In this document: one piece after another, positions 793 to 47,695 of the stretch
Numbering within the stretch: the stretch's first letter is position 1
Layout of the letters: every line of letters begins with the position of its first letter
Sequence record: MK234886
Origin: Escherichia phage AnYang
DNA length: 64,000 nt
Reading direction: 5' to 3' (one strand)
Program-made: the position numbers and the translations under genes
Notes under the pieces: model-generated
What the model saw: only the letters and a program-made list of their open reading frames with translations
Told to the model about the DNA's origin: nothing
The model's database searches: none

Positions 793-1020
793 TTATTTTC
801 CTAACGAAACACGAGTAGGTTTTTTACCAAAATAGTCCTCATAAGAACCATCTAAACGACCCGCTTTAGACCGACAATATGAATCGTACTTTTTGTAATA
901 AGTCATCTCAGTATTATAACGTGGGTGTCTATCAGCCATAATAATACTTAGTGGCCAACCTTTGGCATAATCGCGAAGACCATTTATTTTACGAATGTAT
1001 CGTTTTTTCAATTTTAGCAT
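793..1020 (-). CDS. hypothetical basic protein (75 aa)
   Basis: ORF track; start ATG overlaps last codon and stop of upstream paralog E (ATGCTAA), translational coupling. Confidence 0.5.
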   Translation of the reverse strand: MLKLKKRYIRKINGLRDYAKGWPLSIIMADRHPRYNTEMTYYKKYDSYCRSKAGRLDGSYEDYFGKKPTRVSLGK

Positions 1021-1238
1021 GAGCTTGGGTACCAGATTTTACCATCGGAACGAGCAACGAAGGTGCGACCAGCTTCTTCACCATAACAAGAGCTATTCAG
1101 CCAATCTTCGAGACGAACTTCACCGTCATAATCATCGAGCTCAACGCCAAAATCCTGAGCAGAAGCCATATCTTTTACTTTCTTATACAGTGCAGCCAGT
1201 TCAAGTGCAGCTTTTTCTAATTCATTAATATCAGTCAT
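1014..1238 (-). CDS. small acidic protein, paralog E of C-terminal W-x-S-S-Cys family (74 aa; also internal WLNSSC)
   Basis: internal ATG at 1238 with GGTGA RBS overlapping stop of paralog D; ends ...GKIWYPSSC. Confidence 0.6.
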   Translation of the reverse strand: MTDINELEKAALELAALYKKVKDMASAQDFGVELDDYDGEVRLEDWLNSSCYGEEAGRTFVARSDGKIWYPSSC

Positions 1239-1248
1239 TTTTATCACC

Positions 1249-1458
1249 TTAGCAAGACATAGAGGAGCTAAACCAGAAACCTTCACCTTCTGGAATACCG
1301 TAATCATCACGGGCCCATTCGTAATCATCATATTCCGGACTAGAAGCTGGAATATATTCTTCGCCACCAGCGTGGAAGTGTTGACCTGTTTCGTCAGCCA
1401 CGGACTGGCCTTTACGTACTAATTCACGGATTTGTTTTTCAATTTCATCAATAGTCAT
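1249..1458 (-). CDS. small acidic protein, paralog D (69 aa), ends GFWFSSSMSC
   Basis: ORF track; AAGGAAA RBS overlapping stop codon of paralog C. Confidence 0.6.
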   Translation of the reverse strand: MTIDEIEKQIRELVRKGQSVADETGQHFHAGGEEYIPASSPEYDDYEWARDDYGIPEGEGFWFSSSMSC

Positions 1459-1467
1459 TTTATTTCC

Positions 1468-1665
1468 TTAGCATTCGTAAGAGGAGGACACCCAAGAGGT
1501 ACCACTAATAGTAATACAACCGTTATAAAGCGTGATATGTCGTTCTAGGTCACGAACACCATCGATATAGATATCAGCTTCTTCGCGTTCTTCTTTACAA
1601 ATCTGGATAACGTTTTCAATAGCTGCGGCTGCAGTACGGATTGCACAATCTAGTTCACGAGACAT
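1468..1665 (-). CDS. small acidic protein, paralog C (65 aa), ends TSWVSSSYEC
   Basis: ORF track; AAGGAA RBS overlapping stop codon of paralog B. Confidence 0.6.
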   Translation of the reverse strand: MSRELDCAIRTAAAAIENVIQICKEEREEADIYIDGVRDLERHITLYNGCITISGTSWVSSSYEC

Positions 1666-1674
1666 AATAATTCC

Positions 1675-1956
1675 TTAACATTCAGAAGAAGAGGACACCC
1701 ATCCACCATTTTCTAGGCTGGTGGTGTAATCATGTTGGTTTACAATAGCGTACTGAGCTTCACCGTATTCTTCCCAGTGGGCAAGGTCGGCTTTCAGGGC
1801 GCCAGGAGAATAATAGTCACCGCCCATACCGCGAGCAGGGTATATATTAAAATGAGTCTCATATTTGTTAGCAATTTCCTCAGCACGACGAATAGCTTTA
1901 TGAATATCATTTACTGCTTCAGCCAGCTCTTTATTTTTACGGTAATCATTCATCAT
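1675..1956 (-). CDS. small acidic protein, paralog B (93 aa), ends GGWVSSSSEC
   Basis: ORF track; AAGGAAA RBS overlapping stop codon of paralog A; shares KYG/GDY core with paralog A. Confidence 0.6.
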   Translation of the reverse strand: MMNDYRKNKELAEAVNDIHKAIRRAEEIANKYETHFNIYPARGMGGDYYSPGALKADLAHWEEYGEAQYAIVNQHDYTTSLENGGWVSSSSEC

Positions 1957-1965
1957 AGCGTTTCC

Positions 1966-2256
1966 TTAGCACATTGCCGAAGAGGAGACCCAAGCACCGA
2001 CTGTAACGACACCGTTTTCAACTTCACCGCCATTGTTTTCAATTTCATCTTTAAACCACTGGGAGCATTCATAACCGACAGGATAATATGTACGGCCTGA
2101 ACCATAATCACCTGTACCGAATTGGATACCATACTTATCGGCAATAGCTTCACATTCATGTTCGATGGTATTCACTTTATTCAGAAGAGCATAGATAGCC
2201 TTTTCTGCAGATTTCTCATCATTGTGTTCTGGGATTTCAATTTCAATTTTATTCAT
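1966..2256 (-). CDS. small acidic protein, paralog A (96 aa), ends GAWVSSSAMC
   Basis: ORF track; ATGA start/stop overlap with upstream membrane protein gene. Confidence 0.6.
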   Translation of the reverse strand: MNKIEIEIPEHNDEKSAEKAIYALLNKVNTIEHECEAIADKYGIQFGTGDYGSGRTYYPVGYECSQWFKDEIENNGGEVENGVVTVGAWVSSSAMC

Positions 2257-2606
2257 GATTTACATTCCTTAATAAAGGTTTCAAGGTCATTACGATTGGT
2301 TTGTTTTACATACTCATTATAATTAGCCATCGATACAGCATATCTCTTACGGATGGGAGCATTCAAAGCATTTGTATGGCAAATATCATACACTACAGGG
2401 ATAAAATAAGCCACGACAGCCGGAGCGATTATCATATAGAAACCCATCTCAATAGGTGTGACTCCTTCGATTACAGCCATAACCACGGTCATTACCAGGC
2501 CAATTAGGCCGCCAAGCATGGCTGTAACAATCCCTAATAATAAATTGGCACCAATATCATATTCAGCCAATTGATAAACATGTGATGAAAGACTAGGCCG
2601 CTCCAT
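2253..2606 (-). CDS. small membrane protein, two predicted TM helices (117 aa; ORF track start 2780, internal ATG 2606 preferred)
   Basis: hydrophobic stretches GANLLLGIVTAMLGGLIGLVMTVVMAV and GFYMIIAPAVVAYFIPVV; AGAGG RBS before ATG 2606. Confidence 0.45.
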   Translation of the reverse strand: MERPSLSSHVYQLAEYDIGANLLLGIVTAMLGGLIGLVMTVVMAVIEGVTPIEMGFYMIIAPAVVAYFIPVVYDICHTNALNAPIRKRYAVSMANYNEYVKQTNRNDLETFIKECKS

Positions 2607-3135
2607 TTTGAACCTCTTTAGCGTATTCGCGACATTCAGCAATAAAACGATTAAGCTTCCGTTGTTGTTTTCGAATCTCTGATGTATACTCATTAGCCAA
2701 AATAATAAGCTCATCTTTATCGTAATTTTTAATATCCGAATAACTCGGGCGGCGGTCGACCATACCAAAGTGGTCACCATTTTCTAACATCAAATAGCAT
2801 ACTAAATGGTAATCATCGTCAGCATCAACAAGCTGTTTACAATCACTTGGTTCATTTAAAGCGTATACTGAATAGCATAATCCAGCGAATTCCACTCGTT
2901 GAATACCTAGATTTAAGTCAATAATTTCTAAAGCTTCTGCAAAAGAAAGGTCCTCAGCTAAAGCAAAGATAAAAGGTAATTTGCTAGTGTATCCACGGCT
3001 ATTTGTTCGACTTAAGAAATCATTGGAATAACCTAAGTCTTGGCGAATTCTATAAAGAACTGAATTAGTTTCATGGGAAAGACCACTATGCTTAAACCAG
3101 TCAATATTTGATATCAGGTCGTCATATAAACTCAT
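2593..3135 (-). CDS. hypothetical protein (180 aa)
   Basis: ORF track; GGAGAGGAG RBS upstream of ATG. Confidence 0.5.
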   Translation of the reverse strand: MSLYDDLISNIDWFKHSGLSHETNSVLYRIRQDLGYSNDFLSRTNSRGYTSKLPFIFALAEDLSFAEALEIIDLNLGIQRVEFAGLCYSVYALNEPSDCKQLVDADDDYHLVCYLMLENGDHFGMVDRRPSYSDIKNYDKDELIILANEYTSEIRKQQRKLNRFIAECREYAKEVQNGAA

Positions 3136-3158
3136 AATATTCTCCTCTCCTCCAAATA

Positions 3159-3176
3159 GGGAGACCGAAGTCTCCC
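3159..3176 (-). terminator. stem-loop GGGAGAC-UUCG-GUCUCCC (minus strand)
   Basis: perfect 7-bp inverted repeat with UUCG tetraloop directly downstream of 3184-3777 gene; same hairpin at 4674-4689 and 41242-41259. Confidence 0.5.
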
Positions 3177-3183
3177 AGTAACA

Positions 3184-3777
3184 TTACTTAAGTGAATTAA
3201 TGTAGTCGTCGATATCGGCAGAAGTCGTATCCATTCCAACTTGTGGGCCTTTAAACGTTTCTACACGCAGCAGGGTATCTTCAATATCAATCTTAGTCAG
3301 TGCAGCGATTTCAACAACATCATCGGCAGTAGCAATACCAAGGGCAGCCATATTGCGAGTTTCACGGATGTACTCGAGCTTAACGGCCAGTTCCTGACGA
3401 GAGTCATCAAGTTCCTTGACCTTCAGTTTAATTTCATTACGCATTTCGATATAATCATCGGCCTTCTTACGAAGCTGAGTAGCTGTACGACGATAAAGGA
3501 GGCCAAGTTTAGCATGTACCTGGACATCAGCACCTTCGGCAATCAGTTTACGAATTTCACGTTCTTTAGAAGCGGCAAGCTGGTCTTTTTCATTAGCCAA
3601 CGCACGAATACGTTTTTCTTCATTCACAGACTTAACATGAGCGGTCTGGAGTTCAGTAATTTTATCAATCAGGGTAGAAGCAGCTTTGGTGTATTGGTCT
3701 TCGATTGACAGGTTCTGAGCCATTGCAGTACCCAGTTTAGAACGGATGAATTCAACGATTTTCTTTAAAGTGTTCAT
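3184..3777 (-). CDS. hypothetical coiled-coil protein (197 aa)
   Basis: ORF track; AAGGAAA RBS; heptad-rich charged sequence. Confidence 0.55.
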
Positions 3778-3819
3778 AGTATTTCCTTCAGTTGATTAAG
3801 ATTTATAATCCATGAGGAC

Positions 3820-3848
3820 ATTATACCCTGTCCTCTGAGGTTTGTAAA
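3820..3848 (-). promoter_or_regulatory. sigma70-type early promoter TTTACA-N17-TATAAT with overlapping stem-loop GAGGACA...TGTCCTC
   Basis: hexamers and inverted repeat read on minus strand upstream of 3184-3777 gene. Confidence 0.5.
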
Positions 3849-3852
3849 TATT

Positions 3853-4251
3853 TTATTTCATTTTTGCGAGGCAAATTTCATTGGCTTCCCATTGAGCTTG
3901 CTTAATAATAGCTTTGGATACAGGAACCCTTTGGCCATAAGTTTTTGACGTTGAGAGAACAATATGTTTGTTTGCTTCATTATGCCAGCCCCATGATTTT
4001 TCGCCATGAGTACCTTTAACTACAGCTGACACCTCAACAGAGCAACCACCATCAGAAATCTTGGTTTCGACAATCCATTCATTTCTTTCGACGGCTTCAA
4101 GTTCTAATCTAGTTTTTTCTTCATACATAGCGGCCCAATCAGTTTTTGCCAAGTTGAAAGTAAGAGCTTTCTCCAATTCTTTGGCAGCTTTTTGTTGTTC
4201 AGGCGTTAATGAATTATACAACTCTTGCATTTCTTTATCTTCGATATTCAT
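3853..4251 (-). CDS. hypothetical protein (132 aa)
   Basis: ORF track; GAGGAG RBS. Confidence 0.5.
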   Translation of the reverse strand: MNIEDKEMQELYNSLTPEQQKAAKELEKALTFNLAKTDWAAMYEEKTRLELEAVERNEWIVETKISDGGCSVEVSAVVKGTHGEKSWGWHNEANKHIVLSTSKTYGQRVPVSKAIIKQAQWEANEICLAKMK

Positions 4252-4572: not shown

Positions 4573-4607
4573 TTTACTCTCCTTCACTCTGTTGTTTTGA
4601 TAGGTCT

Positions 4608-4636
4608 ATAGTATCATGTTTAAAGGAGGTGTAAAC
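4608..4636 (-). promoter_or_regulatory. early promoter GTTTAC-N17-TACTAT (TG-extended)
   Basis: read on minus strand; member of repeated TGATACTATAGRCCTATCAAAAC module. Confidence 0.5.
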
Positions 4637-4673
4637 AACTTTGTGAAATTATTTTTAGTCTAACCCCCAAAAA

Positions 4674-4694: not shown

Positions 4695-5303
4695 TTATTT
4701 ACGAGTCTTTTCGAACTGGGCTGCGTCACCTGCAAGGCGGCCGGCTTGGCGAAGTTTGTTATTGATTTCTTCGCGCATAGGCTGGGTATACTTAAGGCCT
4801 TCAACCGTCAGATAGAGACGATACAGGTCTGGGGTATCCAGGTTGTTAATGTGTTGACCATTACGAAGAGCGTTGAATTCACGAACAAGGTGTTTAGTTT
4901 CAGATTCGATTTCAGAAACTAAAGAAGCCAGTTGGTTATATTTTTTAACTATAGTGCTGGTGTCAAACTTGATTTTAGGTTTAGGAGCTTCTTTTACAGG
5001 TTCTGGTTTAGGCGTCGGTTTCGGTGTTGCAACTTTGGGCTGAGCCGCAGGTTTAGCAACAGGAGCTTTAGTAGGTTTAGTAGCGCCACCAGCTACGATA
5101 TCTTTAAAAGCTTTGGAAGCTTTGTAATATTCTTTCTGGTTACTGGTGTCGAGCCCATACATATCATAGACGTTTTTAAAGAATTCGGTGGTGGTTTTAG
5201 TCCCAGAAATTTTATCATAAGCTGCTTGCCACATATCTTTAGTCATGCGAACGCCGGCTTCACTCAGAATGCTTTCGTTCAAAAATTCATTGTAAGTTTT
5301 CAT
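4695..5303 (-). CDS. internal-protein-like (IPIII-like) packaged protein with N-terminal capsid-targeting-type leader MKTYNEFLNES and Lys/Pro-rich centre
   Basis: leader resembles T4 IP CTS MKTYQEFIAE; late promoter TATAAATA upstream; 202 aa. Confidence 0.55.
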   Translation of the reverse strand: MKTYNEFLNESILSEAGVRMTKDMWQAAYDKISGTKTTTEFFKNVYDMYGLDTSNQKEYYKASKAFKDIVAGGATKPTKAPVAKPAAQPKVATPKPTPKPEPVKEAPKPKIKFDTSTIVKKYNQLASLVSEIESETKHLVREFNALRNGQHINNLDTPDLYRLYLTVEGLKYTQPMREEINNKLRQAGRLAGDAAQFEKTRK

Positions 5304-5331: not shown

Positions 5332-5339
5332 TATTTATA
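5332..5339 (-). promoter_or_regulatory. T4-type late promoter TATAAATA (minus strand)
   Basis: exact TATAAATA about 30 nt upstream of ATG 5303, leader AACTTAGGAAATA. Confidence 0.55.
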
Positions 5340-5345
5340 CAAAAA

Positions 5346-5365
5346 GCCCAACCTTTCGGAAGGGC
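5346..5365 (-). terminator. hairpin GCCCUUCCGAAAGGUUGGGC + U-run (minus strand)
   Basis: inverted repeat followed by TTTTTG on minus strand, downstream of 5372-5926 gene. Confidence 0.5.
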
Positions 5366-5926: not shown

Positions 5927-5952
5927 ATTATTTCCTAAGTTAGTTTACTACA

Positions 5953-5960
5953 TATTTATA
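5953..5960 (-). promoter_or_regulatory. T4-type late promoter TATAAATA (minus strand)
   Basis: exact TATAAATA about 27 nt upstream of ATG 5926. Confidence 0.55.
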
Positions 5961-5967
5961 CAAAAAA

Positions 5968-5989
5968 GGCCCGACCTTTCGGAAGGGCC
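5968..5989 (-). terminator. hairpin GGCCCUUCCGAAAGGUCGGGCC + U-run (minus strand)
   Basis: inverted repeat followed by TTTTTTG; third copy of same element at 47703-47725. Confidence 0.5.
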
Positions 5990-6225: not shown

Positions 6226-6300
6226 TGGTATCCCGCCCTGGGATCGAACCAGGACCGCAAACTTAGAAGGATCGTATGCTATCCATTACACCAGCGGGAC
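6226..6300 (-). tRNA. tRNA-Arg (anticodon UCU), CCA encoded
   Basis: 75 nt cloverleaf read on minus strand: 7-bp acceptor stem, T-arm CCUGG-UUCGAUC-CCAGG, anticodon loop CUUCUAA. Confidence 0.85.
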
Positions 6301-6305
6301 GTAAT

Positions 6306-6971
6306 TCAAAATTTTATTTTACGGCCTTTATTCCAACCTTCAGGAATAATATCCGTTTTGTTAATACGTTTAGAAACTTTTTCTTCTAAAGAATGAATCC
6401 ACATTTTTCCATATCCGGAATTATTTTCACCTTGTTGGTGTTTATTTCTGGCGTGAGATTCTTTCATTTTATTTTTGGTTTCATCTGAATGGGTCTTACC
6501 CAAGAAAGATTTAGTATTTGAAAATTTCTCTCTATACTTAGGATTATCCCAAAGTTGTTTAAACCTTTCTGAACCCATTTTACGATATTTTTCTTTAAGG
6601 TCTGGGTCGTTCTCAAATCTGGTTTTAAAAGCGGCAACTCCTTTTAAGGAAGCTTCTTTCTTTTTATCTAAATATTCTTCAGTGTTTAAATGGTCCCAAC
6701 CACCTTCACCGCCTAATTTCAAATTATAAACATCGGGGCGCTTTAAAAACTCTTCAGTCACAATATTCTTTTCTGACTCAAACATAGAGATTTTATCGTC
6801 AAAGAACTCTAATATTTCTTTAGAGAAATTTTCTATACCGTATTTGGCCTGGGCCCTTTTCAAGAGTTTACCGGAACCAAAATATGCATCATTCAAATTT
6901 TCGGTTGAATGGGCTCCTATATAGATTTTATTATTAATTTTGTTTGTTATTTTATAAGTGTAATGGAACAT
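6306..6971 (-). CDS. segB: GIY-YIG homing endonuclease, SegB-like (221 aa)
   Basis: N-terminal YTYKITNKINNKIYIGA motif; sits between two tRNA genes as segB does in T4; AGGAGA RBS. Confidence 0.75.
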   Translation of the reverse strand: MFHYTYKITNKINNKIYIGAHSTENLNDAYFGSGKLLKRAQAKYGIENFSKEILEFFDDKISMFESEKNIVTEEFLKRPDVYNLKLGGEGGWDHLNTEEYLDKKKEASLKGVAAFKTRFENDPDLKEKYRKMGSERFKQLWDNPKYREKFSNTKSFLGKTHSDETKNKMKESHARNKHQQGENNSGYGKMWIHSLEEKVSKRINKTDIIPEGWNKGRKIKF

Positions 6972-7012: not shown

Positions 7013-7083
7013 TGGCCCTGGGTGGAATCGAACCACCATCCAGCGATTATGAGTCGCTCGCTTGACCGTCCAGCTACAGGGCC
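7013..7083 (-). tRNA. tRNA with CAU anticodon (Ile2/Met type), CCA not encoded
   Basis: cloverleaf on minus strand: acceptor GGCCCUG/CAGGGCC, anticodon stem-loop GCGA-CUCAUAA-UCGC, T-arm GGUGG-UUCGAUU-CCACC. Confidence 0.8.
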
Positions 7084-7484: not shown

Positions 7485-7769
7485 TTAAAGCATATTAATG
7501 TAATCAAGTTTAATAGAAGCAATCTTCAAAGGATTTTTAAAGATGTCATATTCGACCAATCCATTTTCAGTTGCGGTATAAAAAGTAAAGTTAACAGAAT
7601 TATAACGATGGCTGTTAACTTTGAGTTTAACATCGCTTGAACTACGGCCAATATTAACCTGTTGAACATCAAGCACAGCATCTTTGCCATAATTGCGAAT
7701 CAACAACTCAGCTGCAACCTGGTCTGAATTATAGCCATTCTCTGGATTAGTAACCTTAACGTATAGCAT
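7485..7769 (-). CDS. hypothetical protein (94 aa)
   Basis: ORF track; ATG immediately follows stop of upstream gene (TAAATG). Confidence 0.5.
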   Translation of the reverse strand: MLYVKVTNPENGYNSDQVAAELLIRNYGKDAVLDVQQVNIGRSSSDVKLKVNSHRYNSVNFTFYTATENGLVEYDIFKNPLKIASIKLDYINML

Positions 7770-8171
7770 TTAACCCTCGTCTACAATGGTGTGGGTGTTG
7801 GCATTAACAATTTGCCACCAGTCAAAACGATTAGACCCATAAAGAGGCTTATTCTCGTTTTCTTTAATAATATCACGCAGTTCATCTTCAGAGAATGCTT
7901 TAGCGATTAAATCAGTATATCCACCACGTGGATAATAGTTGTCACCCGCGAACAAAAGGAAATTTACCTTTCCAGAAGGAATATATGCTTCCTTAGGATA
8001 CTTGTTTCCTGCATGGTCTAACACTTCAATATAACGATAAGGGATATCAGTACTTTCAACCCATTGCCAAGCCGCAGCAGGAGAGTCAAAAGCATCTACA
8101 CCTAAACGGTTATCTTCATCTTTAGACGGATTATTTTCATAATCCGCATATACATAATATTCAACGTTCAT
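7770..8171 (-). CDS. hypothetical protein (133 aa)
   Basis: ORF track; AAAGGTGA RBS; TAATG overlap with upstream gene. Confidence 0.5.
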   Translation of the reverse strand: MNVEYYVYADYENNPSKDEDNRLGVDAFDSPAAAWQWVESTDIPYRYIEVLDHAGNKYPKEAYIPSGKVNFLLFAGDNYYPRGGYTDLIAKAFSEDELRDIIKENENKPLYGSNRFDWWQIVNANTHTIVDEG

Positions 8172-8356
8172 TATTCACCTTTAGAGATTTTATCCATAAC
8201 AAAAGAGATTGAACCAATTAAAAATGCCACTACTAAAGAGATTATATTCTCGGAAGTTGAAAGCATATCGAGCATGAATCCTGCAAACATACTAAAGCCA
8301 AAAGCAGTAACGGCGGCCAGTGCAGTAACATTTCTAATTAATTCGCAACGTTTCAT
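8171..8356 (-). CDS. small hydrophobic membrane protein (61 aa; ORF track start 8368 is TTG)
   Basis: ATG 8356 with GGAGA RBS; two hydrophobic segments. Confidence 0.45.
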   Translation of the reverse strand: MKRCELIRNVTALAAVTAFGFSMFAGFMLDMLSTSENIISLVVAFLIGSISFVMDKISKGE

Positions 8357-8392
8357 TTTATTCTCCAATCACTCATTTGTTTTGATAGGGCT

Positions 8393-8421
8393 ATAGTATC
8401 ACCACTAGAGCCCGTTGTAAA
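8393..8421 (-). promoter_or_regulatory. early promoter TTTACA-N17-TACTAT with stem-loop
   Basis: read on minus strand upstream of 8171-8356 gene. Confidence 0.5.
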
Positions 8422-8424
8422 CAA

Positions 8425-8697
8425 TTATTTTAGATAAATTGCATACTTTTTATAACCAGCCGTTTCGTGACGCAGTCCTTTTTCATTAGCAAAACGTTCA
8501 ATATTGTTAATTTGATTCTGGTCAAGTTCTGAAGTATCAAAAACAAAAAAGTTTCGCTTATTGCCTAAAGTTACATGATTAGTCAAATCAATGTTATAGA
8601 GATGATTTATATTATCAATCATGGTCTTAACAGATTTGTTAATTTTTACTTCTTCATTAAGAACAGATTCAGCGATAAATTCTTGATAAGTTTTCAT
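8425..8697 (-). CDS. internal-protein-like small protein with capsid-targeting leader MKTYQEFIAES (90 aa)
   Basis: N-terminus matches T4 IP capsid-targeting consensus MKTYQEFIAE; sits next to 57B as ipI does in T4. Confidence 0.55.
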   Translation of the reverse strand: MKTYQEFIAESVLNEEVKINKSVKTMIDNINHLYNIDLTNHVTLGNKRNFFVFDTSELDQNQINNIERFANEKGLRHETAGYKKYAIYLK

Positions 8698-8698
8698 T

Positions 8699-8920
8699 TT
8701 ATTCTACGCCAGCGGCTTTCAAAAGTTTTTTAAGATTGGCGGTGCCTTGAGCAGAAAATGTGACCTTGCCGCCTTTTTCGCTGATGCTCCCAGTCAATTT
8801 AGCAAGTTTATCACTAGAGACTTTTTTAAAATCAGCCAATGTACCGTCAAAGGTTTTTGTAACAACCGGCAGTTGGTCATGTTTTTTAGCTTCTGTAATA
8901 AATTCTTGATAAGCTTTCAT
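8699..8920 (-). CDS. internal-protein-like small protein with leader MKAYQEFITEA (73 aa)
   Basis: CTS-like N-terminus; GGAAA RBS; tightly coupled to downstream IP-like ORF. Confidence 0.55.
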   Translation of the reverse strand: MKAYQEFITEAKKHDQLPVVTKTFDGTLADFKKVSSDKLAKLTGSISEKGGKVTFSAQGTANLKKLLKAAGVE

Positions 8921-8957
8921 TTTGATTTCCGTTTGGTTAGTTTGTTTTGATAGGTCT

Positions 8958-8986
8958 ATAGTATCACGCCTATAGACCTTGTAAAC
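8958..8986 (-). promoter_or_regulatory. early promoter GTTTAC-N17-TACTAT with perfect 10-bp stem-loop AGGTCTATAG...CTATAGACCT
   Basis: read on minus strand upstream of IP-like genes. Confidence 0.55.
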
Positions 8987-8998
8987 ACCTTTTTTAAA

Positions 8999-9676
<678 letters not shown>

Positions 9677-9684
<8 letters not shown>

Positions 9685-10438
9685 TTTTATTTCCTAATAA
9701 TTTATCAATAGTAGTGTATAGTTCAGAAAGAGTGCCGTTATTTTCAACAACAACGTCACCAGGTAAAATTGGTAGACCCGCTTCAGTGATGTGCGAGTCT
9801 TGTACTTGACCGGTTTCAGAGCGAACTACATGAATAATCGTAGCACCCATCGCTCTGAGCGAATCAATTTCGTGTGTTTGACGAACATCAGGTACGACAT
9901 AGTATTTCGCATCAGAGTATATTTTATCAAAATAGTCTAAAGCGAACAACTTAACCCAATACATCTTATCAAATTGGTTAACAATAATATCAGTCCCAAG
10001 GGTCTGCATGAGACGACGTACTGACCAATTGTTATTTTTATTTATTACTTCAAACAGTTGGTCTTTTGTTTCTTCAGACAGATACTGGACTGGGGTAAGA
10101 CCATAATGATATGCGGTACGAACGTCCATTCCTGGAATAGGAAGGATATTATTCAGTTTGACAATAGCATTTTCAAAGATATCAACCACATCATATGGTT
10201 TTAAAGGAAGGATTTCTTCACGGTCGTAACCGATACCTTCAAAACAGTTGAAATCCAGTTTAGGCATATAACTACGGTCGAATACAGGGTCATCAGAGAT
10301 GTATTCATAGGCTTCAGCCAGATACTTTTTAATAGGACCTGCGAGCTGAAATTTTACCGAATCCATATTTTCGATTACATAGTTAGCAACGGTATCCTTA
10401 CCGCTACGTTTGATTCCTACAATTGATATTAGTTTCAT
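9677..10438 (-). CDS. 1: gp1 deoxynucleoside monophosphate kinase
   Basis: P-loop GIKRSGKDT at N-terminus; 253 aa; synteny. Confidence 0.85.
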
Positions 10439-37735: not shown

Positions 37736-38163
37736 TGTTCCTTATCCCTGATGATTACGAATTAACTCTAGAAAGCGTAGAGGCCAAAATTCCAGAAGCA
37801 CAGGGACGTTTTGCTGCTCTTTCTGAAGCGCTCGAGAAAAGCGATATAAATAATCTTGTAGAGAACATGATTGCTGAAGGCGATATCGAATGTGCTATCG
37901 CTCTTGGTTCTTTAAATGAATCAATGGCTCTTAACGAATTTATCGTTAAACACGTTTCCTCTAAAGGTGTGCTTACTCGTACTAAAGATATTAAAACCCG
38001 TCAACGTAACGCATTCCAAACGACCGGGTTATCTAAAGCAAAGCGCCGTCAGATTGCTCGCAAAGCATCTAAAACCAAACGTGCTAATCCATCTACTCAA
38101 GTGCGTGCTGAACGTAAGCGTAAGAAAGCCCGTTCTAAACGTAAAGCTTTTGGACTTAACTAA
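37735..38163 (+). CDS. 68: gp68 prohead core protein
   Basis: 142 aa, basic C-terminus, synteny. Confidence 0.75.
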
Positions 38164-38798
38164 TGAAACCTGAATTGCTCATCGAACATTGGGGACAACC
38201 AGGTGAAATTATCGATGGGGTTCCTATGTTGGAATCTCATGATGGAAAAAATTCTGGGCTTGCTCCCGGCCTTTATATAGAAGGCATTTTCATGCAAGCA
38301 GAGGTAGTTAACCGTAATAAACGCCTTTACCCAAAACCTATTTTGGAAAAAGCCGTTGCCGATTATATGGCAGAACAGGTTGCTACTAAACAAGCTTTAG
38401 GAGAATTAAACCACCCACCTCGTGCTAACGTTGACCCTATGCAAGCCGCTATTATTATTGAAGATATGTGGTGGAAAGGTAATGATGTTTATGGACGCGC
38501 ACGTATCATCGAAGGTGACCATGGCCCAGGTGATAAACTAGCTGCAAATATCCGTGCCGGTTGGGTTCCTGGTGTTAGTTCTCGTGGTCTTGGTTCTTTA
38601 ACCGAAACCAACAAAGGATATAAGCGTGTAAACGAAGGTTATAAATTAACCGTCGGTGTTGATGCAGTATGGGGACCATCTGCTCCTGATGCTTATGTAA
38701 CTCCAAAGCAAATTACAGAATCACAAACGGTAGAAACCGATACCAGTGCCGATGACGCCTTTATGGCTCTCGCAGAGGCCATGAAAAAAGCGTTATAA
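38163..38798 (+). CDS. 21: gp21 prohead core protease
   Basis: 211 aa, synteny. Confidence 0.85.
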   Translation: MKPELLIEHWGQPGEIIDGVPMLESHDGKNSGLAPGLYIEGIFMQAEVVNRNKRLYPKPILEKAVADYMAEQVATKQALGELNHPPRANVDPMQAAIIIEDMWWKGNDVYGRARIIEGDHGPGDKLAANIRAGWVPGVSSRGLGSLTETNKGYKRVNEGYKLTVGVDAVWGPSAPDAYVTPKQITESQTVETDTSADDAFMALAEAMKKAL

Positions 38799-38828: not shown

Positions 38829-39644
38829 ATGCTTAAAGAACAACTGATCGCCGAAGCACAGAATATTGATGCTTCCGTTGCTCTTGACAGTATTTTCGAA
38901 TCAGTTAATATTTCTCCGGAAGCAAAAGAAACTTTCGGCACTGTATTCGAAGCTACCGTCAAGCAACACGCCGTGAAACTGGCTGAATCTCACATCGCTA
39001 AAATCGCTGAAAAAGCGGAAGAAGAAGTCGAGAAAAATAAAGAAGAAGCTGAAGAAAAAGCCGATAAGAAAATCCAAGAAGCTGCCGGTCGTTTCCTTGA
39101 CCACGTTGCTAAAGAATGGATGGCTGAAAACCAGCTGGCTGTTGATAAAGGTATTAAAGCCGAACTGTTCGAATCCATGTTGATGGGTATGAAAGAACTG
39201 TTTGTTGAACACAATGTGGTTGTTCCAGAAGAAGCAGTAGATGTTGTTGCTGAAATGGAAGAAGAACTCCAAGAGCAGAAAGATGAAACCGCTCGTCTGT
39301 TCGAAGAAGTTGGTAAGCGCGACGCGTATATTAATTACGTACAGCGTGAAGTTGCTGTTACGGAAGCAACTAAAGACCTGACTGAATCTCAAAAAGAAAA
39401 AGTTAGTTCTCTGGTAGAAGGCATGGATTATTCCGATGCATTCGGTAAAAAAATTGGCGCTATTGTTGAAATGGTTAAAGGTCAGTCTGACGTTGAAAAC
39501 CCAATCACCGAAGCCGCTATAAATAAAAATGTAGACGATGCTGCGGCACTGAATTACATTTCAGAAGCAGTTGAAGAAAAAGGCGCTAAGCCTACCCTGT
39601 CCTTCGCGGACCTGTCTGCAATCGCAGCATCACGAATTTCTTAA
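38829..39644 (+). CDS. 22: gp22 prohead scaffold core protein
   Basis: 271 aa, Glu/Lys-rich coiled coil, synteny. Confidence 0.8.
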   Translation: MLKEQLIAEAQNIDASVALDSIFESVNISPEAKETFGTVFEATVKQHAVKLAESHIAKIAEKAEEEVEKNKEEAEEKADKKIQEAAGRFLDHVAKEWMAENQLAVDKGIKAELFESMLMGMKELFVEHNVVVPEEAVDVVAEMEEELQEQKDETARLFEEVGKRDAYINYVQREVAVTEATKDLTESQKEKVSSLVEGMDYSDAFGKKIGAIVEMVKGQSDVENPITEAAINKNVDDAAALNYISEAVEEKGAKPTLSFADLSAIAASRIS

Positions 39645-45974: not shown

Positions 45975-47471
45975 ATGCAAATTCAAGTACATTTTGATAA
46001 TTTTAGTCATGTTCGTATTGAATGCGATGAATCTACATTCTACGAACTCAGAGACTATTTTAGCTTTGAAGCTGATGGATATAAATTCAACCCTAAATTT
46101 CGTTATGGGCAATGGGATGGTCGTATTCGTCTTCTGGATTATAACCGTAAACTGCCTTATGGATTGGTCCCTCAAATTAAAAAGTTCGCTGAACAATTTG
46201 AATACTCTCTGTGGATTGACCCACGTATTCTTGAACAGGAAGATATTTCTCGTGAAGATTTTGACTCATGGGTAGCTTCTCAAGAAATTTATTCAGGGTC
46301 TACCAAGATTGAGCCTCATTGGTATCAGAATGAAGCCGTATACAACGGCCTGACAAAACGTCGCGCAATTCTGAATTTACCTACATCCGCAGGTAAATCA
46401 TTAATCCAGGCGCTCCTGAGTCGATATTACGTTGAGAACTATGAAGGTAAAATCCTTATTCTGGTTCCTACTACTGCACTTGTCGACCAGATGATTAATG
46501 ACTTCATCGATTATCGTCTGTTCCCTAAAGCAGCAATGCTTGGTATTCGTTCAGGTACTGCTCGTGATTCTGATGCAATGATTTACGTTTCGACTTATCA
46601 AACTGCTATTAAGCAACCTAAAGAATGGTTTGCTCAGTTTGGTATGTTTATGAACGACGAATGCCATTTGGCTACAGGTAAATCTATTTCTACTATCATC
46701 GAAGGCCTAACCAACTGTATGTTTAAATTTGGTTTGTCTGGTTCTTTAAAAGATGGTAAAGCTAATTTAATGCAATATATGGGTTTGTTTGGTGACGTGT
46801 TTAAACCTGTTTCCACCTCCCAATTGATGGAAGAAGGACAGGTTACAGACCTTAAAATCAACAGTATTTTCCTTCGATACCCAGACGAATTCACAGTTAA
46901 GATGAAAGGTAAAGATTACCAATCAGAAATTAAAGTCATTACTAAGGCTACTCGTCGTAATAAATGGGTTGCTAATTTAGCTGTTAAACTCGCTAAGAAA
47001 GAAGAGAACGTATTCCTGATGTTTAAAAACATCGAACACGGTAAAACTCTTTTTGAAATGGTTAAAGAGCAACATAAAGAAGTTTATTATGTATCAGGTG
47101 AAGTTAATACCGAAACGCGTAATGCTCTGAAAGTAATGGCGGAAAATGGTAAGGGTATTATTGTTGTGGCAAGTTATGGTGTGTTCTCTACTGGTATTTC
47201 CGTTAAGAACCTTCACCACGTTGTATTTGCTCATCCGGTAAAATCTAAAATCATTGTACTCCAGACAATTGGTCGTGTACTCCGTAAACATGCTTCTAAA
47301 TCAACAGCACAAGTATGGGATATCATCGACGACATGGGTGTTAAGCCTAAATCAGCTACGGCTAAAAAGAAATATGTTCATTTGAACTACGCCCTCAAAC
47401 ACGCTTTAGAACGTATTCAACGTTATGCTGATGAGAAATTTAATTACGTAATGAAACAGGTGGATTTATGA
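45975..47471 (+). CDS. uvsW: UvsW DNA/RNA helicase
   Basis: Walker A PTSAGKS, DEAH-like box DECH, 498 aa. Confidence 0.9.
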   Translation: MQIQVHFDNFSHVRIECDESTFYELRDYFSFEADGYKFNPKFRYGQWDGRIRLLDYNRKLPYGLVPQIKKFAEQFEYSLWIDPRILEQEDISREDFDSWVASQEIYSGSTKIEPHWYQNEAVYNGLTKRRAILNLPTSAGKSLIQALLSRYYVENYEGKILILVPTTALVDQMINDFIDYRLFPKAAMLGIRSGTARDSDAMIYVSTYQTAIKQPKEWFAQFGMFMNDECHLATGKSISTIIEGLTNCMFKFGLSGSLKDGKANLMQYMGLFGDVFKPVSTSQLMEEGQVTDLKINSIFLRYPDEFTVKMKGKDYQSEIKVITKATRRNKWVANLAVKLAKKEENVFLMFKNIEHGKTLFEMVKEQHKEVYYVSGEVNTETRNALKVMAENGKGIIVVASYGVFSTGISVKNLHHVVFAHPVKSKIIVLQTIGRVLRKHASKSTAQVWDIIDDMGVKPKSATAKKKYVHLNYALKHALERIQRYADEKFNYVMKQVDL

Positions 47472-47695
47472 AAACCTTTAAAGAAGTTATTCAGGAAGCA
47501 TCTATTGAAAGCTTCATGTCTAAAATTAGTTCTTGTCAGACCATGGACGGTCTGGAGGAATTGGAGAAGTATTACAAAACTCGTAGTAAGGAAGCCGAAC
47601 TTCGTGATTCGGATGATATTAGCGTGCGCGATGCATTGGCTGGTAAGAGAGCTGAATTGGAGTCGATGGACGACGAGGAAGAGGAAGATTTCTAA
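47468..47695 (+). CDS. uvsW.1: UvsW.1 small acidic protein
   Basis: 75 aa, ATGA overlap with uvsW stop. Confidence 0.7.
   Translation: MKTFKEVIQEASIESFMSKISSCQTMDGLEELEKYYKTRSKEAELRDSDDISVRDALAGKRAELESMDDEEEEDF

Follow-up and report, generated by a model that had tools for sequence, protein, structure and literature searches.

Escherichia phage AnYang (sequence record MK234886) carries, on the minus strand of the 64,000-nucleotide (nt) stretch analysed here (the window), two adjacent open reading frames (ORFs) that are almost certainly ip8 and ip9, known genes for internal head proteins of T-even phages (Table 1). The ORFs encode 73 and 90 amino acids (aa), respectively, and are separated by a single base. 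An initial annotation, made from the sequence alone, had reported two small leader-bearing ORFs next to gene 57B, in a locus equivalent to that of the T4 internal protein (IP) IPI, and both descriptions hold. In T4 the gene order at this position is 57B-ipI-trna.4, and by synteny the ip8-ip9 pair therefore occupies the ipI slot, one of two variable IP loci of T-even phages (the other lies near gene e); phage RB15 has the array ip5-ip9-ip7-ip8 there. The cassette adjoins a known counter-defence gene, as 57B encodes Acb1. Further upstream of 57B are 57A (Pfam GP57), an ORF at the gene 1 position, and ORFs at the gene 3 and gene 2 positions. The downstream neighbour, annotated as trna.4 in phages IME08, VR5, and JS98, is followed by trna.3- and trna.2-like ORFs. 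Positions 7700-9700 of the window share 96% identity with the Dhakaviruses IME341 and IME08, and matches to this region exist in 295 phage records. The window is that of a JS98/IME08-like Dhakavirus.

Both genes have named relatives in profile and sequence databases. Ip8 matches PHROG 8765 ('internal virion protein', E=1.8e-24), and its mature part shares 84% identity with RB15 Ip8 and 100% with the copy in phage UGJNEcP3. Ip9 matches PHROG 7673 ('internal head protein', E=3.5e-56), and shares 78% identity with RB15 Ip9 (Q38376) and 98.8% with the copies in IME08, LHE83, and others. The IME08 record labels its 90-aa gene 'Ip9, similar to RB15 and K3 Ip9', and the same adjacent pair is labelled ip8 and ip9 in the VR5 record. 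The Ip8 body (at least 60% identity over at least 80% of its length) is found in 106 deposited phage records, half of which are Klebsiella phages, and the Ip9 body in 191. The two genes are not a discovery: their names date from 1994, and near-identical phages carry annotated copies. What is new here is only the wider distribution of the Ip9 domain; the rest is a correct re-identification of annotated genes. Two deposited records have unannotated gaps of their own: that of IME08 (L001, locus 3504-4010) contains ip8, while that at the IP slot of JS98 (L003, EF469154, locus 3157-3806) holds a 97-aa leader-bearing ORF starting MKTYQEFIKESTDL, which was seen in the IMG/VR copy of this phage (L005).

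Table 1. Coordinates of the ip8-ip9 cassette, its boundary elements and neighbours, and of related genes elsewhere in the AnYang window. The slash marks the predicted cut.
Feature	Position	Strand	Description
ip8	8699..8920	-	73-aa precursor starting MKAYQEFITEAKKH; leader MKAYQEFITE coded by 8891-8920
ip9	8425..8697	-	90-aa precursor starting MKTYQEFIAESVLN; leader MKTYQEFIAE coded by 8668-8697
Promoter and stem-loop element, left cassette boundary	8942..8990	-	TTTACA-16-TACTAT with TG; 10-bp hairpin 8952-8979; repeat family D1; -17.2 kcal/mol, z=-5.2
Second promoter and stem-loop copy, right boundary	8377..8424	-	Downstream of ip9, upstream of trna.4-like gene; -16.3 kcal/mol, z=-3.9
Third copy of the element	4592-4661		Second internal-protein locus; promoter present, hairpin not significant
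57B	8999..9454	-	Full-length Acb1 (anti-CBASS phosphodiesterase/nuclease family), Pfam PF23474 E=8.4e-59; conserved upstream anchor of the locus
trna.4-like small membrane protein	8171..8368	-	PHROG 1692 E=3.9e-33; conserved downstream neighbour
Third leader-bearing protein	4695..5303	-	202 aa, MKTYNEFLNE/S; PHROG 2280 (unknown function) E=5.6e-60; second internal-protein locus
gp21 prohead core serine protease	38163..38798	+	Pfam Peptidase_S77 E=6.4e-103; expected remover of the leaders
gp22 scaffolding core protein	38829..39644	+	Pfam T4_CASP E=6e-90; part of the prohead core, the leader's target

Both precursors begin with a T4-type capsid-targeting sequence that includes the I-x-E motif, as the initial annotation had proposed. 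One qualification concerns MKTYQEFIAE, the T4 leader cited there. IPI, the T4 occupant of the slot, has a different leader of 19 residues (MKTFKEFTSTTTPVSTITE, then cut before A), and MKTYQEFIAE is therefore the leader of IPII and IPIII. The N-terminus of T4 IPIII reads MKTYQEFIAE/ASVV, and its first ten residues are matched at 10/10 positions by the Ip9 leader and at 8/10 by that of Ip8. In alignments of 16 Ip9 and 14 Ip8 relatives, M1, K2, F7, I8, and E10 show no variation and position 4 is occupied by Y, F, or H, while the residues directly past the predicted cut vary in both families. For the IPIII leader, residues 4 and 7 have been assigned to targeting and residues 8 and 10 to processing, and the ten residues were shown to be enough to have foreign proteins packaged and cleaved (Mullaney and Black, 1996, as summarised in PMC9026906). 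The invariant residues of the Ip8 and Ip9 leaders fit this experimental map. The gp21 cleavage motif (I/L-x-E and then a small residue, defined from the literature summarised in PMC9026906) is present as I-T-E/A in Ip8 and I-A-E/S in Ip9. Cleavage at these positions would yield a mature Ip8 of 63 aa (6.6 kDa, isoelectric point (pI) 9.9, 12 lysines plus arginines) starting at Ala11 (AKKHDQLPVVTK), and a mature Ip9 of 80 aa (9.4 kDa, pI 8.0, 11 basic and 10 acidic residues) starting at Ser11 (SVLNEEVK). Mature IPI, for comparison, has 76 aa, 8.0 kDa, and a pI of 9.0.

The likeness of the two leaders is not a matter of chance, because a 36-nt stretch of leader-coding DNA is shared between ip8 and ip9 at 86% identity (repeat family D5). 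In a six-frame scan of the 64-kb window, just one further true leader of this type was found, at 5303 on the minus strand, where it opens the gene for the third leader-bearing protein. A look-alike at 47468-47695 on the plus strand (75 aa, MKTFKEVIQEAS) was rejected, as it is UvsW.1 (Pfam PF11637, E=4.8e-25), encoded directly after uvsW, and not an internal protein; this ORF exemplifies the false positives to be expected from motif-only scans for internal proteins. In addition to gp21 and gp22, the window encodes the portal protein gp20, gp23, and gp24. We consider it highly probable that Ip8 and Ip9 are packaged and cleaved.

The cassette lies between two copies of an element of ~45 nt, a third copy of which is found at the second internal-protein locus. 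Read along the coding strand, all three copies have the sequence GTTTACA-N16/17-TACTAT, extended by TG, and in the first two copies 9-10-bp hairpins overlap the spacer and the -10 box. The hexamers TTTACA and TACTAT match the T4/PST promoter consensus TTTACW-N17-TAYWAT (PMC4122927). The same element precedes T4 ipI and trna.4, as well as RB15 ip5, ip9, ip7, ip8, and trna.4. The window thus carries, at both ends of the cassette, an early promoter with an inverted repeat, which are boundaries resembling the promoter-early stem-loop elements known as PeSLs. According to Arbiol et al. (PMC2839356), 'PeSL-like' sequences were seen at both IP loci by Repoila et al.; upwards of 30 IP variants have been recorded, and PeSL-like elements may keep the shuffling of IPs within these two loci. 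A promoter scan found the element at 8942..8990 to be the sole promoter-like element upstream of ip8-ip9. No such element separates the two genes, and their ORFs are one nucleotide apart; ip8-ip9 is therefore a single unit. Together with the conserved leader DNA, the promoter and stem-loop repeats at the boundaries supply homology that would allow cassettes to be swapped between phages.

The variability of the slot was surveyed in 39 loci, 36 of them taken from IMG/VR around homologues of 57B and the other three being those of the window, T4, and RB15. Leader-bearing ORFs, which lie mostly downstream of 57B, were listed and their bodies clustered. Approximately 21 unrelated leader-bearing body families were recovered, with zero to three per genome, in agreement with the earlier description of the locus as hypervariable. 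Ip9 is the commonest body (13 of the 39 loci). Ip8 was found in six by the same scan, which overlooked at least the RB15 and IME281 copies. Ip8 is directly followed by Ip9 in five loci (the window, QL01, IME341, vB_EcoM_005, and VR5), and Ip9 occurs without Ip8 in eight surveyed loci. Ip8 stands alone in the slot of Klebsiella phage Mineola, and JS98 (L005) has neither body. An obligate Ip8-Ip9 pair is thereby ruled out, and the occurrence of each gene without its partner marks them as independent cassettes. The best explanation overall, which we regard as likely, is that ip8 and ip9 encode independent T-even internal proteins that have been joined as a two-gene unit in the ipI slot. Exchange may not be limited to whole cassettes: P0035, a 77-aa protein from the search of representative proteins described below, has an Ip7-like N-terminal part (AILRSLAKNGVEVSASDFKKGSSEMFISITKGSKAKIKSS) and 35 C-terminal residues that are Ip9-like (FDENQFNNIQRFANDKGLRHEPGGYKKYAIYLK). 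This looks like a chimera, and would mean that recombination also occurs inside internal-protein bodies, beyond the cassette boundaries.

Past their leaders, Ip8 and Ip9 are unrelated to each other, as the initial annotation had maintained. BLASTP aligned residues 1-19 of the two proteins and nothing further, and hhalign of their family profiles aligned only the N-terminal ~34 columns. When compared with T4 IPI by BLASTP, Ip9 matched the leader alone and Ip8 gave no match at all. AlphaFold2 models built from the family alignments have a mean predicted local distance difference test score (pLDDT) of 80 for Ip9 and 77 for Ip8. In the Ip9 model the leader helix is followed by helix-strand-strand-helix-strand-strand, and in that of Ip8 by strand-short helix-two strands-helix. 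Both bodies are thus predicted to be compact alpha/beta domains. Foldseek of the Ip8 model against BFVD returned its own family only, and a sequence search of the PDB with the family profiles gave no match below E=0.2. Pfam contained no family for Ip9 and gave only sub-threshold matches for Ip8 (DUF7412, E=0.023, confined to the leader), and PADLOC reported nothing for Ip8 or Ip9. No sequence or fold similarity of Ip8 or Ip9 to the proven GmrSD inhibitors T4 Ip1, Ip2, and Ip3 was found.

The Ip9 body is also encoded outside T4-like phages. Two small siphovirus ORFs, one of 72 aa in the Guernseyvirinae phage M01 (WKW35322; PHROG 7673 E=2e-25) and one of 74 aa in the Seuratvirus KS_A3 (WZL04117; PHROG 7673 E=6e-21), share 44-52% identity with it by tblastn. 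In-frame stops lie 10-14 codons upstream of both ORFs, which leaves no room for a hidden leader. In a Kuttervirus protein of 755 aa, residues ~678-737 share ~33% identity with the Ip9 body by tblastn (PHROG 7673 E=2e-8). A profile search of 1.84 billion representative proteins yielded 19 clusters at E<=0.001, 18 of which are credible Ip9-domain members once P0048, a 340-aa repeat protein, is left out. Some cluster members have a T4-type leader and some do not. In an alignment of 19 diverse Ip9-domain members, one Arg (in an N-I-E-R motif) and one Gly are invariant. No description of an Ip9-domain family was found in Pfam or in the literature examined.

These observations lead us to suggest, tentatively, that the Ip9 body belongs to a broader domain family of ~65 residues, with the fold predicted for Ip9 and the invariant Arg and Gly, and that IP loci recruit pre-existing cytoplasmic effectors by means of the ten-residue tag. 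As part of this proposal, the domain would be deployed in three ways: tagged with a leader in T4-like phages, as a stand-alone untagged early-region gene in Guernseyvirinae and Seuratvirus, and near the C-terminus of a 755-861-aa Ackermannviridae protein with a leader-like start. If the proposal is true, Ip9 would act on a factor widespread among enterobacteria and not on a restriction enzyme specific to T-even phages. In Salmonella Kuttervirus aagejoakim (NC_049503; L044, record 74277-77369, locus 973-4065), three consecutive genes have T4-leader-like starts. The first, gp085, starts MAIPSFLNFLEES and encodes the 755-aa protein bearing the Ip9-like domain. It is accompanied by gp086, which starts MKPFIEYFKEQAA and whose annotation refers to an 'unknown structural protein' of Dickeya virus Limestone, and by gp087 (57 aa), which starts MKGFPDFLKEAKV. 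Given these three starts, Ackermannviridae may use a related head-targeting leader.

The functions of the T4 internal proteins provide a precedent. IPI inhibits the GmrSD restriction enzyme of E. coli CT596 (PMC3012670), and IPIII is needed for infecting strain ECOR17 and works without its leader when made in the host (Srikant et al., PMC9391042). Two additional GmrSD systems, both highly diverged, are inhibited by Ip2 and Ip3 in a strictly one-to-one manner; Ip1, Ip2, and Ip3 of T4 each block one distinct GmrSD variant, and proteins of both Ip loci have been proposed to target variants of one immune system (Silas et al., 2025; PMC12373910). In the same study 15 GmrSD groups were synthesised, of which five new systems were active against T-even phages, besides the three known.

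The proposed course of events for Ip8 and Ip9 starts with transcription of ip8-ip9, which would be driven by the T4-type early promoter seen in the upstream stem-loop element. As in the T4 IPIII experiments, the ten-residue N-terminal sequence would dock both precursors on the gp22 prohead core. A cut by gp21 after Glu10 would then free the basic mature Ip8 and the mature Ip9 amid the packaged DNA, with which they would be injected together. By analogy with the T4 proteins, each may disable a first-response defence of the host before phage genes are expressed. The likeliest target, on the same analogy with Ip1, Ip2, and Ip3, would be a further variant of the modification-dependent (type IV, GmrSD-like) nucleases. 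The analogy makes an anti-defence role for Ip8 and Ip9 reasonably probable, but a GmrSD-type enzyme as their target is doubtful. The initial annotation had called the two proteins candidate injected anti-defence effectors with unknown targets, which matches the published state of knowledge, one negative GmrSD test included (Silas et al., 2025; PMC12373910).

Several results weigh against this scheme. When ten ip genes, ip4-ip10 included, were assayed against the new active GmrSD systems, no reproducible inhibition was seen (Silas et al., 2025; PMC12373910, Supplementary Fig. 9), and an apparent effect of ip8 on the CLS_018/019 doublet system did not reproduce (Silas et al., 2025; PMC12373910). 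Ip8 and Ip9 are therefore not filed here as GmrSD inhibitors, and may act in the same manner on other variants. The empty family, fold, and PDB searches gave no functional clue. The presence of the Ip9 body in siphoviruses and Ackermannviridae suggests that its target may not be specific to T-even DNA. A literature search found no virion proteomics of Ip8 or Ip9 that would bear on their presence in heads, cleavage, or injection. Lastly, no late promoter (TATAAATA) was found on the coding strand between 8920 and 12411, so that a supply of the two proteins at head assembly would need early-made protein or read-through. The gene for the third leader-bearing protein, unlike ip8 and ip9, has a late promoter of this sequence at 5332-5339.

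Some of these results could instead mean that Ip8 and Ip9 are injected effectors with targets other than type IV (GmrSD-like) enzymes, such as another immune system, a host nuclease, a competing phage, or a host factor. This would account for the negative outcome of the published GmrSD panel for both ip8 and ip9, and for the leaderless homologues of the Ip9 body in a Guernseyvirinae siphovirus and a Seuratvirus and the domain in the 755-aa Kuttervirus protein. With 18 credible clusters that share an invariant Arg and Gly, and with homologues outside the T-even phages, the target of Ip9 seems to matter to phages other than the T-even ones. The adjoining gene moreover encodes Acb1, and the region thus already holds a counter-defence against a different system. 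However, all three internal proteins of known target act on GmrSD enzymes, the diversity of GmrSD is large and few active variants were included in the published panel, and a modification-dependent nuclease could also be the target in siphoviruses and Ackermannviridae with an Ip9 domain. We therefore regard targets outside type IV as possible, though on the unlikely side.

A mainly virion role, in which small basic proteins neutralise DNA charge or help packaging or ejection without a specific host target, is improbable. It draws on the strongly basic composition of mature Ip8 (12 lysines plus arginines in 63 residues, pI 9.9) and on T4, where lysines in the internal proteins are in contact with phosphates of the DNA and may accelerate packaging (PMC3012670). 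Mature Ip9, however, is near neutral (pI 8.0), its 11 basic residues being offset by 10 acidic ones, and both proteins are predicted to be compact folded domains and not disordered polycations. A generic charge function would also leave unexplained why ~21 unrelated, rapidly exchanged bodies occupy one locus and why JS98 manages with neither Ip8 nor Ip9. The T4 internal proteins, in turn, are non-essential and all three have specific targets (PMC12373910). That the leader is vestigial, and Ip8 and Ip9 ordinary early cytoplasmic proteins that stay out of the virion, is very improbable: the pair does have an early-type promoter only, and leaderless Ip9 homologues do exist as early-region genes in siphoviruses, but the targeting and cleavage residues are invariant in both families while those past the cut vary, the leader is conserved between ip8 and ip9 even in DNA, and T4 ipI, whose product is proven to be packaged, shares the promoter element and likewise shows no late promoter consensus in the part examined directly upstream.

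Other features of the window were noted outside the ip8-ip9 locus. Beside the late promoter at 5332-5339 lies a terminator-like hairpin (~5345-5365), and the module of hairpin plus late promoter is repeated at 5952-5988. At 6306-6971 on the minus strand, a 221-aa homing endonuclease (PHROG 314, E=1.4e-47) is encoded within the tRNA cluster at the site that segB occupies in T4, between tRNA-Arg (6226-6300) and tRNA-Met (7013-7083). The cluster has two tRNAs in the window, compared with three in IME08 and JS98 and eight in T4. Tandem small ORFs of 65-117 aa at 1014-2256 on the minus strand end in a similar C-terminal motif, W-V/F-S-S-S-x-x-C (e.g., GGWVSSSSEC, GAWVSSSAMC, TSWVSSSYEC, and GFWFSSSMSC). 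Three of them align with the C-terminal portion of PHROG 899 and one with PHROG 4882, two families without an assigned function; judging by their sequences, the ORFs look like an array of paralogues.

No phage product arrives in the host cytoplasm earlier than the internal proteins, and since 2025 all three T4 examples have been known as specific inhibitors of type IV restriction enzymes. Among the carriers of Ip8 and Ip9 are phages of Klebsiella, Salmonella, Shigella, and E. coli of the sort employed in therapy. Identifying the targets of the two proteins would account for some of the host range of these phages and would probably bring to light new variants of defence systems, and the leaderless homologues of Ip9 offer a concrete route to its target.

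The internal proteins of RB15 are among the closest known systems. The same two families are present (mature bodies of Ip8 at 84% and of Ip9 at ~78% identity), with the same kind of leader, in the same slot between 57B and trna.4, and with the same promoter and stem-loop elements. RB15 differs in having four cassettes, ip5-ip9-ip7-ip8, each with a promoter element of its own, whereas the window has only ip8-ip9 with one shared upstream element, a joined arrangement that is also found in VR5, QL01, vB_EcoM_005, and IME341. T4 IPI occupies the same slot between the same flanking elements and is of comparable size once mature (76 aa). The scaffolding core mediates its loading, and gp21 its processing (PMC3012670). 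Unlike Ip8 and Ip9, IPI has a leader of 19 instead of ten residues, an unrelated body, a proven target, and a solved structure, and neither of the latter two is available for Ip8 or Ip9. The leader of T4 IPIII and IPII, MKTYQEFIAE, is identical to that of Ip9 and two positions off that of Ip8, but these proteins come from the other locus and have larger bodies of unrelated sequence, and their targets are known to be the GmrSD enzymes of ECOR17 and ECOR21. The mobile regulatory PeSL cassettes of T4-type phages likewise combine an early promoter with an overlapping stem-loop, flank variable genes in hyperplastic regions, and have been proposed to mediate modular shuffling (Arbiol 2010; Comeau 2014). 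The elements of the IP loci are analogues, not homologues, of the PeSLs of RB49 and phi1, being based on T4 early promoters and having weaker, AT-richer stems (Arbiol et al., PMC2839356).

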